This document shows positions 27,601 to 33,600 of a stretch of DNA of 41,544 bases, one piece after another. Source of the stretch: an uncultured Methanosarcinales archaeon (GTDB lineage Archaea; Nanobdellota; Nanobdellia; Woesearchaeales; B54-G15). Location: contig CAZFJK010000006.1 in assembly GCA_964519225.1 (NCBI GenBank), positions 1 through 41,544 on the forward strand, in the 5' to 3' direction. A program made the position numbers. Positions within the stretch are counted from its first letter, which is position 1. Every line of letters starts with the position of its first letter.

Positions 27601-30600
27601 ATTTACAATCGCGTCGATTTATCTTTTAGTTTTAATGATAAAATTCTTAATAGCTCCGCCATGTGCAGAAGAAGTCGGAAAATGCGTGCTTAAAATTTAG
27701 TTTTACTTAGCTCTTTGTCTTTGTTGCTTTCTTCTTCTCTTTTCTTTTTTCATCCTCTTTCTTTGCCACTTCCAGCGCATTTGCCAGCGTTTTTTCCATC
27801 GACGTGATGAGCGTTTCATTGTTTCTGGCTTTTTTGGGGGAAGTATAAAAATTTTTTGAAATTGTAAAGTAAACTTATTAAGTAAACAGTTGATAAGGGA
27901 TTGCTTTTATACCTTGGTGGAATCTTTCTTTATTAAACCATTCTTGAAACTCTCATATCAAGAAGGAGATTCAATGTCTTAATGCGCTAATCAAATCACA
28001 GAATCAAAAATAATTTCATTCAATTTTATCCTTCCTTAATCCTCACAAAAATTTGGAAAACTCTTCTTCGTCAACTTTAGCTAGTTTTAGAATTCCCTTT
28101 AATGTACCTATTTTGAGTTCTTTATGAAGAGGAACAACAGTCCCAACTTTACCTTCTTTTGTCGTTCTAACAAGCCTAACATGAGAACCCCTTCGTCCGC
28201 TTATCTCAAACCCTAATTTGTTGCATGATATTTTCACAACGGCCTCTCCAGAGATTTTTCTAAGTCTTGGCACTAATAGCCACCTCAAACGTGGTTAACC
28301 AAGTTCTTCTCTTTTCTTCCAGAGGAAATTCTTCTAAATAAAGTTCAGTTGCTTCTTTTAAGTTTCCTATTGCTTCTTCAATAGTCCGTCCTTGACTAAC
28401 TGTTCCCACCTCAGGACATTCTGCTACATACATATCTTCTTCTTTATGAATAACAGCGGTGAATGTTCCCATCAATACCACCTAAACAATCGGAATACTT
28501 TTAGGTATTTAAAATTTCGCTCATTTAATTTTAATGCCCCGGGCGGGACTTTCATAACCTTTTCCGTTAACGCTTTGCGCGTAACGGAAAGGGTTAATTT
28601 GAACCCGCGTCCCAGCCTCGAAAGGGCTGGATGATTGTCCGGGCTACACCACCGGGGCTTTTCAAAGAAACAATACGCTGGATTTTAAAAATTATCGGTT
28701 GGTTTAAAGTCAAAGAAGAAAAATGATGGGCCCGCGGGGATTTGAACCCCGGACCTCCGGTTAGCCTAGAGTTCTTGGATTTTTGTTGATTGTATCCAAG
28801 AACCTCATATAAGACTTGCGCGCCTGAAAGATATCATCTCCACAGGCACGGCGCTCTAACCGGACTAAGCTACGGGCCCGGCTGGATTTTTTCATCATTT
28901 TAAGCAAAGTGAATATTTTTGATTTAAATTTTTATCTTTAACTGCTGGAATGCGGCGGCCGGGATTCGAACCCGGGTCTCAGCCGTGGCAGGGCTGAATT
29001 ATACCACTAAACCACCGCCGCATTTGCTTGAGCTGATGTGCTGATGGGCCCGGCCGGAATCGAACCGGCGACCTCCGCCTTGTAAGGGCGACGTCATAGC
29101 CACTAGACTACGGGCCCAGTCTGGTGAGAGAATTCTAATGTTTTTATTTAAACTTTTTCATAGGAACATTTTTATTCTCTTTTTGTTTTGTTAAGGTGTA
29201 TGAGTAAAGCGCAGCAAGAACTGATCAACCTAATCTTTGATAGAGATGATATAAGTTGGCAAAGCATGCTGTATGAGCTTGTCAGAACAGAGAAGATGAA
29301 TCCTTGGGATATAGATATAGCTATTCTTACAAACAGATTTTTTGAACTAATTAAAACATTAAAAGAAATGGATTTCAGGATAAGTGGAAAAGTATTGCTT
29401 GCTGCTGCTATTCTGCTCAAGCTAAAATCTGTTTATTTGATAAAAAAAGATATAGAGGAGTTTGATAGTCTATTCGCTGAGCCAGAAGAAGAGGCATTAT
29501 TCGAAGATGATTATAATGCTGTTTCAGCAGAAAGAGAACGCTACAAAGGATTACCTCTACCACCAAGATTGCCACAGCTAAGAAAAAGAAAAGTAAGTAT
29601 TTATGAGCTGATTGATGCATTGCAAAAAGCAATGGAAGTAAAGCGAAGAAGAATTCTTAGGGAGCTGCCTCCTGCAGAAATGCCGGTTCCAAAGAAAAGC
29701 TTTAATGTTACTGATGCAATAAAAAAACTATACGAAAAGATTGTTTCATTTTTTAGACTTGGAAGAAAAATAACGTTCTCGGTTCTTTGCCCGTCAAAAG
29801 AAAAAGAAGACAAAGTATATACATTTATTCCATTGCTTCATTTAGCTAATCAAAGGAAGATTGACATTGAGCAGAAAGAGCATTTTGGCGAAATTGAAAT
29901 CTATCTCAGATCTGCAAAAGCGCTTGGCGAAAGGGCGCTAAAGGAACAAACTTTTTAAACAAACAGGTTGTTGTCTTGGAATATGGCAAGAGAAAAAGAA
30001 AAAGCAAAGAAAGAACTTCAGGAGAAATACATAGAATTGCAATTATTAAATCAGCATGCTCAGGAAATCCAAAAACAAATGCAAGTAGTTGAAATGCAGC
30101 TTACAAAACTGCTTTCAGCAAAAGAAGCTGTTAGCGGACTCGGGAATACAAAGATAGGAAGCGAGCTATATGTTCAACTTGCTCCTGGAATTTTTGTTAA
30201 AGGTGAGTTGAAGGAAAATAAAGAAGTTCAGGTAAGTGTCGGCGGCAATGTCGTTGTGCCAAAATCCATAAGCGAAGCAAAAGAACTTATTGATAGACAA
30301 ATAAGGGAATTAGAAAAATTTCAGGAACAGCTAAATGCAGAATTGCAAGCAACGGCACAGAAAGCAGTTGAAGTTGAAAAAGCTGTGGAAGCTCTTTCTA
30401 AAAATGTTTAGGTTTTTCAAAGAAAAACTCAGGAAAGCGCTTGGCAGGATAAGTGAAAAGGTTGAAGAGCCGAGCGAAGAAGAGAGAAAGGAAAAAGAAG
30501 CAAAGCGAGGAATAATAGAAAAGATAAAAGCAAAGATTACAAAGAAAAAAATAAGTGAAGAATTATTTGAACGCTTATTTTGGGATTTAGAACTTTCTCT

Positions 30601-33600
30601 TCTTGAAAACAATACGGCTGTTGAAGTTATTCAAGAGCTTAAGGAAAAGCTGCGAAAGGAATTGGTTGGGCGTGAAGTAAGCAGGAGTGAACTAAAAAAC
30701 ATAATTCTTAGCACACTGAAGGATGAAATAAGTTCTGTTATAAAAGGTATTGACTTGGTTGAACTAGTAAAAGAAAAGCTAAGGAAGAAAAAACCATGCG
30801 TGGTTTGTTTCTTTGGCGTTAATGGCAGTGGAAAAACAACAACGATAGCTAAAATAGCGCACTTGCTAAAGAAAAACGGATTAAGTGTTGTTCTTGCAGC
30901 TTCTGATACTTTTAGAGCTGCTGCTATCGATCAATTAGAGGAACATGCAAAGCGACTTGGCATTAAACTTATAAAACATCGTTATGGTGCTGATGCTGCT
31001 GCTGTGGCTTTTGATGCAATAAAACATGCTGAAGCAAAAGGCATAGATGTTGTGCTAATTGACACGGCAGGAAGAATGCACAGCGATGTAAATTTAATGG
31101 ATGAAATGAAAAAGATTGTTAGGGTTGCAAAACCTGATCTGAAAGTGTTTGTCGGTGAAAGCATAGTTGGAAATGATTGTGTTGAACAAGCAAGAAGATT
31201 CGATCAAGCTGTTGGTATTGACGCTGTTATCTTAACAAAAGCCGATGTGGATGAAAAAGGTGGTGCTATTGTTTCGATAAGCAAAGTTGTTGGAAAACCA
31301 ATAGCTTTTCTCGGTATTGGACAAGGTTATGATGATTTAGTGAAAGTTAATAAAGAATCTATACTTCGTTCTGTTGGGATTTAATGACTAGTCTAAGAAA
31401 AATTTATTAAGAAAGAAAAGTGTCGATCTAAAATGAATATAATCTTTACGCGGCATGCAGAGTAAGGCTCAAAAAGAGGGGCTTCTTAAACATGAAATTG
31501 TTGACGCTATTAAATATCCCGATAAAATCATAAAGAAACGTGGTAAATATCTCTTTAGAAAAAGATTAGAAAAAGGAACCATTGAAGTTTGTTGCGAGAA
31601 AACAGAAAGAAATATAATGATAATTACAGTTTATTGGATATAAAATGGAAATTAGCTATGATAAAGAAGCGGATGCGATGTATATAGAATTTCGTAAAGG
31701 TAAATTCGCTAAAAACAAAAAGATAGGTGACTTTACAATCATAGATCTGGATGCTGAGGGGAATATTTTGGGTATTGAACTTCTTGAAGTAAGCAAAAGA
31801 ATACCAATCGAATCTCTTACAGAAATACATGTAAAAAATTTGCTTGCAGTTGCACGATAAAACAGATCTTTTATAAATGGGAAAGTTTTTTAAACAAAGA
31901 TTGCTTTTCTGGTGTAAAAGAGGTGAAATAGAATGAAATTGATAACACAGCCTGGCGATGCGCTCAAGGCGATGAAGAAAGAAAAGAACTTGAATAAGTC
32001 GATAGGAATTCTTGCCATAGCAGGAATCTTGTTTGGGATTTCTGTGCTAATAAGTGGAACAAGTTTAGCGAATTTAGTGCCGCAAATACAAGCCTGGATG
32101 ACAGGAACATACTGGGCTGCATTGATTACATTCTTGTTTGTGTTTGTTGGAGGTCTTTTCCTCGGATGGTTAGTAAAAGTAGTAATGACAACACTCGGCT
32201 GCAAAGGAACTTATTTTGGAGGGTTAACAGCTGTTGCATATCCAGCATTTATTCTTTCGGTTGCGGGGATTATTTCAGCTTTAGTGAATTATATTCCATA
32301 CATCGGTAGCATACTGGCTTTCTTGGTAACAGTAATCTTAGCTTGTGTTGCTTTTGCATTGACTTACAGGACAATAAAAGAATTGTTTGCTACTGACGTC
32401 GTAACAGCATTTATTGGATTATTGGTAGTATGGTCTGCAGTTGCTGCTGCTGGTGCTGCAACAGTTCCAGGAATAATGCTAGCAGTAGGAAAGATTCCGT
32501 TCATAGCAAAGGTTCCTGGTTTGCTTTAAACCATTTCTTTTTTTATTTTTTAAAAATGAAAGAAATTGGTTATTATGTTGGTGTTGTTGGGTGTGTTGTA
32601 GTTCTTCTTTTTGGCATAGCAAGTATAATCTACGGCGTTTTGCAACCAGCCGAATTCAAGCAATTAGGAGCATACTACGGCATTTGGGGAATTGGCTGTG
32701 CTATTTTTGGATTTATTGGTTTACGAATGACAAAAAGAAAAGCAAGAGGTTACAAAGTTGCAGGAAATCTATTACTGTTAATTTTTGGAATTGGTAGTGC
32801 AATAACAATGATCAGTATGTTCATTGGTCCTGCTTTAATGATTATCAGTGCGATAATTGGCTTTAAGCATAGTTAAAAGCAGGCTTAGGGAAATATAATT
32901 TTGTTATTGTAGAAAACTCCCTTTTTCAGCTTAACTGGTCGCCATTCATCTAGGATTAATTCTGCTTTCAGCCATGATGCGAGCTTTTTTGGATTTCCTA
33001 TTGTTGCGCTTAGTGCTATTAAATGCAGGTTTGGCAGTAAACGTTGAAGGATTGTTATCAGAATTTCAAGTGTTGGTCCTCTGCCGACATCATTCAAAAG
33101 GTGGATTTCATCTATTATTGCAACGCCTATTTTTCTTAGCCATGGAGCATGATGCCTGATGAGCGAATCAAATTTTTCTGCTGTGCAGACAATCAGGTCA
33201 TATTTATCAAGATATGGATCTGCTGAATCGAGATTTCCAATTGACAGAGTGATCTTACAAAGATGAGCATATCTATGCGTGAATAAATCGTATTTCTCGT
33301 TTGCTAATGCTTTTAATGGCACAAGGTAAATTGCTTTTTTTCTATGCTCTAAGATTTCTTTTAGCATTGCTAGTTCAGCGACAAGTGTTTTTCCACTTGC
33401 TGTAGGTGTGCATACGAGAAGATTTTTTCTTTTAAGCAAACCAGATTTGATTGATTTTTCCTGGCATGGAGTAAGCTTTTCGATGCCTTCTTTTTCAAGA
33501 ACTGCAAAAAGTTCTTCTGGAATTTCTTTTCTTATGTCTTTTAGGAGCATGTGCTGTTAATTTTTTTCTGTTTATTTAAATTTTATATATCTCTGCGGCA

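Follow-up and report, generated by a model that had tools for sequence, protein, structure and literature searches.

Absence of the ribosome factor aIF6 and truncation of Nmd3 in a DPANN archaeon that retains SBDS

Introduction

In eukaryotes, the late checkpoint of the large ribosomal subunit is formed by eIF6/Tif6, Nmd3, SBDS/Sdo1 and Efl1, all of which are essential. To our knowledge, Archaea possess neither Efl1 nor nuclear export. RsfS, which binds to uL14 and prevents the joining of subunits, is the functional analogue in bacteria and organelles.

In yeast pre-60S particles, the zinc-binding N-domain of Nmd3 reaches toward the sarcin-ricin loop; that it touches Tif6/eIF6 is described in passages of PMC5536393. 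In Sulfolobus, according to passages of PMC8024482, aEF-2 frees aIF6, while aSBDS inhibits this release and is not needed for it in vitro. Binding of aSBDS to the PTC of idle ribosomes is reported in part of PMC13324472. In Haloferax volcanii aIF6 is essential (PMC3828320), and passages of a survey call Tif6 and Sdo1 'consistently present' in archaea, with two genomes representing DPANN (PMC8481954).

The genome-wide survey's note, from which this analysis started, had cautioned that a literature search on aIF6 loss was missing. This concern was justified, since two papers from 2020 and 2023 list PF01912 as a CheckM marker that is often missing in DPANN lineages (PMC7414124, Methods; PMC10134863). 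The relevant passages of both papers give the accession for completeness estimates; they neither name the factor or discuss its function, nor do they describe the locus, count losses or connect the absence with Nmd3 or SBDS. Our literature search found no report discussing aIF6 loss by name. New here are the truncation of Nmd3 in the genome under study (G000), its co-distribution with aIF6, and the observation that SBDS losses are nearly confined to aIF6-less genomes.

The scpA-pfdA-ftsY locus

The window, i.e. the whole stretch of DNA analysed, comprises 41,544 nucleotides of contig C6. The G000 assembly is 97% complete and consists of 53 contigs with 17 internal N runs. On C6 an N run is located at 14478-14577; there is none near the locus, which contains the following features.

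29188-29958, forward strand: scpA, kleisin of the SMC complex (PF02616, E 5.1e-20, 72.9 bits, over cut-off)
29956-29958, forward strand: TAA stop codon of scpA, from reading of the sequence
29959-29982, no strand assigned: deletion junction, 9-24 nt between scpA stop and pfdA start, no remnant ORF
29968-30411, forward strand: pfdA, prefoldin alpha (PF02996, E 5.5e-21, 75.2 bits, over cut-off)
30335/30404-31384, forward strand: ftsY, SRP receptor (PF00448, E 5.4e-71, 238.7 bits; PF02881, E 5e-8, 33.5 bits; both over cut-off)

Two start codons come into question for pfdA, TTG 29968 and ATG 29983, of which ATG 29983 is probably the right one. The ftsY ORF is open from 30335, and its start likely lies at 30404, overlapping the end of pfdA. 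The same-genus genome G001 has the identical gene order and an ftsY that is 94% identical to that of G000.

In five aIF6-positive relatives (G008, G015, G020, G035, G038) the order is scpA-aIF6-pfdA-ftsY, and in 14 of 19 aIF6-positive relatives aIF6 is found at most 2 kb upstream of ftsY. For other archaea, a linkage L31e-eIF6-LX-pfdA-ftsY is described in part of PMC10833476. The aIF6 gene of the relatives measures about 670 nt, where G000 has the spacer of 9-24 nt. Comparison of the scpA-aIF6-pfdA-ftsY order with the empty slot of G000 thus reveals a simple, clean excision of aIF6. The survey's note had placed scpA-pfdA-ftsY at the aIF6 position, which may be read as scpA standing in for aIF6. 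The gene order is correct, but scpA is not a replacement, since its ancestral place in this order, as seen in the five relatives, is next to aIF6 on the upstream side.

The empty scpA-pfdA-ftsY slot is shared by G000, G001, G002, G006, G009, G014, G018, G019, G026, G027 and G028, and also by G213, G142, G063, G186 and G247. A second junction type, scpA-prs-pfdA-ftsY, occurs in G010, G024 and G189; its counterpart with aIF6 is aIF6-prs-pfdA-ftsY in G004. Among the aIF6-less relatives no consistent filler of the slot was found, which is either empty or contains prs. G220 has a 366-aa ORF at this place.

The scpA-pfdA junction is spanned by independent Logan contigs from three runs. These runs come from two samples of a single study, and the source sample may be among them. 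No alternative joints at this junction were found among the Logan contigs of these runs.

Searches for aIF6 and for a substitute

A six-frame search of the whole G000 genome with PF01912 gave no match even at E<=10, while all four archaeal controls scored over the cut-off. Among 23,780 six-frame ORFs with a length of 20 aa or more, none scored better than E 3.7 with an order-specific aIF6 HMM built from six relatives (HMMER --max). With hhalign, a profile of 15 aIF6 sequences was compared with 511 of 683 G000 ORFs, the other 172, on later contigs, having lengths outside the range of 140-330 aa; the best probability was 0.9%. There is no aIF6 signal in any frame of the scpA-pfdA spacer. The second canonical site, after L31e on C18, is likewise without aIF6 and reads contiguously S19e-x-x-L31e-TruD. 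With Pfam, order HMM and hhalign negative and the slot contiguous and empty, the absence of aIF6 claimed for G000 by the survey's note is real. The slot is also contiguous and empty in 15 further aIF6-less genomes, and two single-contig genomes lack the gene.

The analogy with eIF6 makes RsfS the obvious candidate for a substitute. It was rejected, because PF02410 had no match in G000 at E<=10, with nine of ten bacterial controls over the cut-off. The other candidate was an HPF/RaiA-like protein (PF02482, S30AE), a 102-aa ORF beside L15e on C34 with a score of 16.2 bits (cut-off 23.7). It is present in 17 of 19 aIF6-positive and 15 of 22 aIF6-negative relatives. This distribution is not complementary to that of aIF6, and the protein was discarded as a substitute as well. 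Hence, the check for a replacement that the survey's note had left undone yielded none from these two candidates.

Distribution of aIF6

Within the order, 116 of 251 genomes carry aIF6 (92 of the 190 high-quality ones), and within the phylum it occurs in 109 of 301 genomes, all at least 90% complete. The single-contig genomes G017 and G026 have no aIF6. The 72 families with at least two genomes comprise 29 all-positive, 35 all-negative and 8 mixed ones, with G016 scored as positive. In this genome PF01912 gives 18.9 bits, below the cut-off, at a position outside the slot, which reads prs-pfdA-ftsY; it was scored as aIF6-negative on the tree and in the Nmd3/SBDS co-distribution counts described below. 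Divergent, fast-evolving aIF6 occurs in some families, with E-values from 1e-30 to 3e-8 in f30.

On a marker tree of 41 genomes (2234 columns, quick LG+G4 search, unrooted, 18 of 38 inner branches unsupported) aIF6 changes its state nine times, and at least seven of these changes are forced by well-supported branches. If only locus-verified or single-contig negatives are admitted, six changes remain, of which at least three are forced. Since the tree demands 6-9 state changes, the losses are repeated. Together with the 29/35/8 family pattern, this confirms the family-wise, repeated loss that had been suspected from the survey.

Some absences in mixed families are assembly gaps. The pair G032 and G222 was considered as a within-genus loss and rejected, because FtsY is also missing in G032 and the region is therefore probably unassembled. 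Likewise, the 125-aa aIF6 of G154 is not a pseudogene but a gene cut by the contig end. The aIF6-less members of the clade include genomes of 1.7-2.1 Mb; thus, the loss is not limited to extreme genome reduction.

Truncation of Nmd3

The Nmd3 of G000 is a 160-aa ORF that matches PF04981 at positions 139-240 only (43.6 bits, cut-off 24.9). It begins just upstream of the conserved YFEG motif and contains no CxxC motif, and a profile of the N-domain alone found nothing in G000. An AF2 model of the protein has a pLDDT of 89.5, and its top 14 Foldseek matches are NMD3 chains of pre-60S particles (E 1e-8 to 9e-4). The Nmd3 family profile of the order matches yeast and human NMD3 with an E of 3e-17.

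In the 41-genome set, Nmd3 is full-length in 15 of 17 aIF6-positive relatives with an Nmd3 match and short in 14 of 19 aIF6-negative relatives. Over all 251 genomes at E<=1e-7, 86 have both aIF6 and the Nmd3 N-domain, 29 aIF6 only, 14 the N-domain only and 122 neither; counted by family, the numbers are 52, 14, 7 and 63. Both are raw counts that include shared ancestry. An independent-pairs test on the 41-genome tree with seven pairs showed the N-domain changing in the same way in 3.6, in the opposite way in 0.5 and without difference in 2.9; the corresponding sign test is underpowered (p ~0.25). Of the 13 genomes behind the N-domain profile, 12 are aIF6-positive. This may bias detection, but the Pfam result and ORF lengths agree with the profile.

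Family f96 includes both states. Its aIF6-positive member G096 has an Nmd3 of 308 aa with three CxxC motifs. In the locus-verified aIF6-less G186 and G247 the protein has 293 and 290 aa, respectively, lacks the first ~30 profile positions and has one CxxC motif left. Exceptions exist in both directions: family f11 (G142, G213) and G063 have an intact Nmd3 N-domain despite locus-verified aIF6 loss, and G005 and G035 kept aIF6 with a short Nmd3. A predicted complex of aIF6 and the Nmd3 N-domain scored 0.00; run without controls, this gives no answer and speaks neither for nor against binding.

Retention of SBDS

As the survey's note had stated, SBDS is retained in G000. The gene encodes a protein with all three domains and is part of the exosome/proteasome superoperon in the order Pop5-PsmA-SBDS-Rrp4.

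Contig C4: SBDS, 234 aa (PF01172, PF09377 and PF20268 with E 2e-25, 2e-20 and 4e-17)

The accompanying statement that SBDS is the partner releasing aIF6 follows the eukaryotic model and does not hold for Sulfolobus, where, according to passages of PMC8024482, aEF-2 performs the release and aSBDS inhibits it.

In the order, 224 of 251 genomes possess SBDS, including 112 of the 136 aIF6-less genomes (G016 among the latter). Of the 27 genomes without it, 24 also have no aIF6 and the other three are only 80-87% complete. A repeated search with a full-length query in five high-quality genomes scored as negative again found no SBDS. That SBDS is lost almost only after aIF6 may reflect a connection in vivo, one not apparent from the in vitro work.

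Discussion

We regard it as probable that aIF6 was cleanly deleted in the lineage of G000, as one of several independent losses and within a wider dismantling of the checkpoint. The gene was removed from the ancestral scpA-aIF6-pfdA-ftsY cluster, and the system being taken apart would be what corresponds in Archaea to the late large-subunit checkpoint of eukaryotes. As further parts of this dismantling, the Nmd3 of G000 is cut to a 160-aa core lacking the N-terminal zinc domain, and a minority of aIF6-less lineages have subsequently lost SBDS too. New 50S subunits would then join translation without an anti-association factor at uL14, and the Nmd3 core may still probe the P/E-site region. Presumably, an aIF6-independent function of archaeal SBDS explains why G000 retains it. 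The protein might, for instance, occupy or proofread the peptidyl-transferase centre and P-stalk region, protect idle ribosomes, or take part in exosome-linked rRNA processing. The data show the absence of aIF6, its excision, the repeated losses, the short Nmd3 and the co-distribution of the two; from them we infer that the checkpoint is dispensable here and that SBDS is retained for such a role.

The strongest alternative, although an unlikely one, is cryptic retention or replacement, with a diverged and relocated aIF6 or a non-homologous protein at uL14 providing anti-association. The essentiality of aIF6 in H. volcanii (PMC3828320), the very divergent aIF6 of some families of the order (E up to 3e-8) and the slot ORF of G220 are in its favour. 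In addition, G000 contains numerous ORFs without functional annotation, and the substitutes tested were selected candidates. However, neither Pfam nor the order-specific HMM nor hhalign (511 of 683 ORFs) detected a cryptic aIF6, RsfS is absent at E<=10, and the HPF/RaiA-like protein is not complementary. Nothing occurs consistently in the slot of aIF6-less relatives, and the loss of the eIF6-contacting Nmd3 domain speaks against a look-alike at the same site.

A single ancient loss followed by horizontal re-acquisition in the positive lineages is very improbable. Since the tree is unrooted, state changes cannot tell gain from loss, and genes are exchanged among DPANN genomes. Nevertheless, aIF6 occupies the conserved site upstream of pfdA-ftsY in 14 of 19 positives, in five of them between scpA and pfdA, and passages of PMC10833476 describe the same linkage in other archaea. 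Repeated insertion at exactly this site is unlikely. 

That aIF6 exists in the organism and is hidden in one of the draft's ~70 gaps (17 N runs and the breaks between 53 contigs) is hardly credible: G000 is indeed incomplete, the absence in G032 is such an artefact, and the contigs of G089 and G056 end right after pfdA, but G000 reads through both canonical positions without a break, the identical empty slot recurs in G001 and 14 other genomes, three runs bridge the junction, the single-contig G017 and G026 have no aIF6 either, and the Nmd3 domain touching aIF6 is gone as well.

Clean deletion as part of a wider dismantling therefore is our preferred explanation. A broader reading can be put forward tentatively and has, in our view, somewhat less for it than against it. 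In Archaea aIF6, the Nmd3 zinc domain and SBDS may co-evolve as a single module that cells can do without and from which the late-60S checkpoint of eukaryotes descends. Over half of the order may have dismantled it, mostly in the sequence aIF6, Nmd3 N-domain, SBDS. If so, it would be through aIF6 that aSBDS and the Nmd3 N-domain act in vivo, the in vitro result from Sulfolobus notwithstanding, and these cells would make and recycle 50S subunits without any anti-association factor.

A factor held to be universal in archaea and eukaryotes, and essential in Haloferax, is probably dispensable in a large and diverse clade. These natural knock-outs offer a comparative test of the role of archaeal SBDS and of whether the Nmd3-eIF6 contact known from yeast predates eukaryotes. 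For practical purposes, PF01912 is unsuitable as a completeness marker for the phylum, and the same probably applies to full-length Nmd3.

Comparison with known systems

The RsfS system differs in that G000 contains no RsfS at E<=10. The aIF6/aEF-2/aSBDS system studied in Sulfolobus solfataricus (Benelli 2009; Lo Gullo 2021, PMC8024482) shares the location of SBDS in the exosome/proteasome superoperon. As in Sulfolobus, aEF-2 would release aIF6 wherever aIF6 exists. Passages on that system describe an aIF6 that is present and 50S-bound, with aSBDS unneeded for its release, whereas aIF6 is wholly missing in G000.

The late pre-60S checkpoint of eukaryotes (eIF6/Tif6, Nmd3, SBDS/Sdo1, Efl1) is built from the same protein families. 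The aIF6-positive relatives resemble the eukaryotic set: besides aIF6 itself they have an SBDS of three domains and an Nmd3 that is full-length and bears four CxxC motifs. In contrast to the eukaryotic checkpoint, G000 has neither aIF6 nor the Nmd3 zinc domain, i.e. the factors have partly been shed. In yeast the zinc domain of Nmd3 touches Tif6, and it is this contacting pair that vanishes jointly in this order. Within the literature searched, their joint loss is the first hint that the Nmd3-eIF6 contact is functionally conserved in Archaea.

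Absence of aIF6 from G000

The genome under study (G000, 868,879 bp in 53 contigs) is 97.0% complete and 1.6% contaminated. As the genome-wide survey's note had claimed, aIF6 (archaeal eIF6/Tif6) is absent from it. A six-frame search with PF01912 found nothing at E≤10, and four of four archaeal control genomes scored over the cut-off. An HMM made from the aIF6 of six relatives was searched, with every HMMER filter disabled, against the set of 23,780 six-frame ORFs of at least 20 aa and reached a best E of 3.7. With hhalign, a 15-sequence aIF6 profile was compared with 511 of 683 ORFs of 100–450 aa (on later contigs only those of 140–330 aa), for a best probability of 0.9%. 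The site at which relatives carry aIF6, here called the slot, lies between scpA and pfdA and is arranged in G000 as follows.

29188–29958, + strand: scpA (PF02616, E 5e-20)
29968–30411, + strand: pfdA (PF02996, E 5.5e-21)
ORF from 30335, likely start 30404, end 31384, + strand: ftsY (PF00448, E 5e-71)

The stop codon of scpA is TAA at 29956–29958 and pfdA starts at TTG 29968 or ATG 29983, which leaves a spacer of at most 24 nt. The single N run of this contig (C6) is at 14478–14577. Three runs, from two samples of one study (one of them possibly the source sample), supply Logan contigs that span the scpA-pfdA junction with 0–3 differences and contain no alternative joint. In other archaea, according to passages of PMC10833476, a cluster L39e-L31e-eIF6-LX-pfdA-ftsY provides a second canonical site, downstream of L31e. 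No aIF6 was found at the L31e site of G000 on contig C18, which reads contiguously S19e, two small ORFs, L31e and TruD.

The locus is flanked by two small putative toxin-antitoxin-like pairs, HicA/HicB-like (28043–28481, − strand) and DUF4258/DUF2283 (31455–31860, + strand). An Rfam tRNA of 153 nt (28727–28879, − strand), adjoining tRNA-Gly(GCC) and tRNA-Val(TAC), was not called by ARAGORN and probably contains an intron. The GC content of the window jumps to 0.52 in this 0.35-GC genome because of an rRNA operon (20331–25020, − strand) with complete 16S (23541–25020) and 23S (20331–23281) genes.

Excision of aIF6 from between scpA and pfdA

Forty families of the same order were sampled by one genome each. 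aIF6 exceeds the Pfam cut-off in 19 of these genomes, and in 14 of the 19 it is co-directional with ftsY and lies less than 2 kb upstream of that gene. By local HMMs and Pfam, the order is scpA-aIF6-pfdA-ftsY in G008, G015, G020, G035 and G038, scpA-x-aIF6-pfdA-x-ftsY in G033 and aIF6-prs-pfdA-ftsY in G004. Seven further aIF6-positive genomes have upstream genes of other kinds, and in G021 and G029 aIF6 is not linked to pfdA-ftsY. Uninterrupted scpA-pfdA-ftsY is found in the aIF6-less genomes G000, G001 (same genus), G002, G006, G009, G014, G018, G019, G026, G027 and G028, and also in G213, G142, G063, G186 and G247. Other aIF6-less genomes read scpA-prs-pfdA-ftsY (G010, G024, G189) or prs-pfdA-ftsY (G036, G039, G016).

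The survey's note had read scpA as occupying the aIF6 position. The order scpA-pfdA-ftsY is correct, but scpA directly precedes aIF6 in five relatives; it is therefore no replacement but an old neighbour, and what was excised is the aIF6 gene that once separated it from pfdA. The prs-type junction represents a deletion context of its own, distinct from this one. As its synteny marker, prs (ribose-phosphate pyrophosphokinase) stands between aIF6 or scpA and pfdA in a subset of families, represented by G004, G010, G016, G024, G036, G039 and G189 (loci L014, L019, L025, L026, L028, L031 and L123). Family f30 (G030, G152, G220) has a very fast-evolving aIF6 (E 3e-30, 3e-21 and 3e-8) that still occupies the slot ahead of pfdA-ftsY; the G220 version, a 366-aa ORF (L093:136-1236), matches just the profile's first half.

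Individual candidates for a substitute were checked as well. The slot has no consistent filler among aIF6-less relatives, and RsfS is absent from G000. A 102-aa HPF/RaiA-like ORF beside L15e on contig C34 (L089:1486-1791, − strand; S30AE 16.2 bits, below cut-off) probably corresponds to the stand-alone HPF/RaiA-like protein that PMC13324472 describes in DPANN. It was rejected as a substitute since its distribution is not complementary: it occurs in 32 of 41 relatives (17/19 aIF6-positive, 15/22 aIF6-negative).

Extent and number of losses

Within the order, PF01912 is found at E≤0.001 in 116 of 251 genomes (136 families), 115 of them over cut-off, and in 92 of the 190 that are at least 90% complete. 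These tallies include seven unpublished genomes (G183, G244, G113, G205, G207, G209, G132), which enter no locus-level claim. In the phylum, 109 of 301 genomes, all at least 90% complete, have it, with families at 0/24, 0/36 and 0/7 versus 12/12 and 8/8, and one at 9/10. The family-by-family pattern that had been proposed is likewise evident in the order, where 64 of 72 families with at least two genomes are uniform (29 positive, 35 negative) and eight are mixed, one of them solely via a sub-threshold hit. aIF6 is also missing from two genomes assembled as one contig, G017 (1.3 Mb) and G026 (0.8 Mb). Since aIF6-less genomes reach 2.1, 2.0 and 1.7 Mb and some aIF6-positive ones have 0.8 Mb, the loss is not simply a matter of extreme reduction.

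State changes of aIF6 were counted on a 41-genome tree from concatenated RpoB'', RpoB', RpoA' and FtsY (2234 columns; IQ-TREE, LG+G4, quick search), in which 15 of the 38 inner branches are well supported. It requires nine changes, of which the supported branches by themselves force at least seven. When negatives are restricted to 14 genomes whose slot was verified as empty or which are single contigs, six changes remain, at least three of them forced. G000 and G001 cluster with aIF6-less G018, adjoining aIF6-positive G003. With six to nine changes, verified empty slots and two single-contig genomes without the gene, the losses are real and repeated, and the earlier reading is correct in substance. 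Absence was not accepted as loss in G032 ('100% complete'), where FtsY is missing too, or in G089 and G056, whose contigs stop directly after pfdA.

RpoA'' has about 540 aa in G000 (C8:9752-11369) and G001 versus about 380 aa in relatives, to which only its first ~75 residues align (BLAST, E≤1e-10). Within the order, FtsY N-terminal extensions differ in length, between about 350 and 730 aa, and the 612-aa FtsY frame of G023 (L004:2581-3579; L041:4395-6218) has an N-terminal histidine-phosphatase match (PF00300).

SBDS

SBDS is indeed retained in G000, as a 234-aa protein that contains each of the three Pfam domains; the gene order is Pop5-PsmA-SBDS-Rrp4. Across the order SBDS_N occurs in 224 of 251 genomes.

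aIF6 and SBDS in 251 genomes of the order (G016 scored aIF6-negative; kinship uncorrected)
aIF6 present: SBDS present 112, SBDS absent 3
aIF6 absent: SBDS present 112, SBDS absent 24

With G016 scored as positive the counts become 113/3/111/24. The three aIF6-positive genomes without SBDS are 80–87% complete, and those lacking both include genomes of 98–100%; in five of the latter group SBDS remained absent on re-check with the full-length G000 protein. Loss of SBDS is thus nearly confined to genomes in which aIF6 has already disappeared, in counts uncorrected for shared ancestry. As it is kept in most aIF6-less genomes, SBDS has work of its own. In Sulfolobus solfataricus, aIF6 release by aEF-2 is described as inhibited by aSBDS (passages of PMC8024482), and aSBDS is reported to occupy the PTC of idle Pyrococcus ribosomes (passages of PMC13324472).

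Nmd3

The sole PF04981 match of G000 is a 160-aa ORF (C7:19883-20365, L094:1456-1938, + strand). It spans profile positions 139–240, begins just ahead of the conserved YFEG motif, contains no CxxC and also lacks a C-terminal domain of ~55 aa present in relatives. The 14 best Foldseek hits of its AF2 model (pLDDT 89.5) are NMD3 chains from yeast and human structures of pre-60S particles, and the Nmd3 profile of the order matches yeast NMD3 at E 3e-17. Full-length Nmd3 of relatives has 310–355 aa and an N-terminal domain with four CxxC.

Among 41 relatives, Nmd3 is full-length in 15 of 17 aIF6-positive genomes with a hit and short in 14 of 19 aIF6-negative ones. Where aIF6 is verified as missing and Nmd3 has kept its length, the cysteines are eroded (two CxxC in G026, one in G006). 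In the 251 genomes, an N-domain-only profile (13 sequences, E≤1e-7) found the domain alongside aIF6 in 86 and without aIF6 in 14; another 29 have aIF6 alone and 122 lack both. Families number 52 with both, 7 with the N-domain alone, 14 with aIF6 alone and 63 lacking both. Within family f96, Nmd3 of aIF6-positive G096 has 308 aa and three CxxC; in G186 and G247, whose slots were verified as empty, it has 293 and 290 aa and one CxxC, and misses the first ~30 profile positions. In G021 (C6:6692-8853, L048) aIF6, there away from pfdA-ftsY, is a direct neighbour of nmd3, and the two genes point away from each other. Counter-examples exist in both directions: family f11 and G063 are without aIF6 yet have an intact N-domain, and G005 and G035 have aIF6 yet a short Nmd3. 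An underpowered independent-pairs test on the 41-genome tree gave seven pairs, 3.6 the same way and 0.5 opposite (p about 0.25).

N-domain matches interrupted by two to four stops were seen at G017:C1:990438-990755, far from the short nmd3 gene of that genome, G135:C3:7636-7902 and G055:C91:1631-1906. They are possible relics of the domain.

Comparison with known systems

Bare absence of aIF6 is not new: it is already in print as a completeness-marker note on PF01912 for DPANN lineages (PMC7414124), also for Jingweiarchaeales and Parvarchaeales (passages of PMC10134863). Our literature searches found no published discussion that names aIF6 loss or connects it with Nmd3 or SBDS. The following points appear to be new: that aIF6 was excised cleanly, how many independent losses occurred, that the Nmd3 zinc domain was lost along with it, and that SBDS loss is nested in aIF6 loss. 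According to passages of the respective sources, Tif6 and Sdo1 are consistently found across archaea in a survey that included two DPANN genomes (PMC8481954), and aIF6 is essential in Haloferax volcanii (PMC3828320). Yeast Nmd3's N-terminal domain, which binds zinc, is described as reaching toward the sarcin-ricin loop, touching Tif6 and being resolved only with Tif6 present (passages of PMC5536393). Together, excision, repeated losses, Nmd3 co-loss and nested SBDS loss amount to a testable argument for a dispensable archaeal module made up of aIF6, the Nmd3 N-domain and SBDS.
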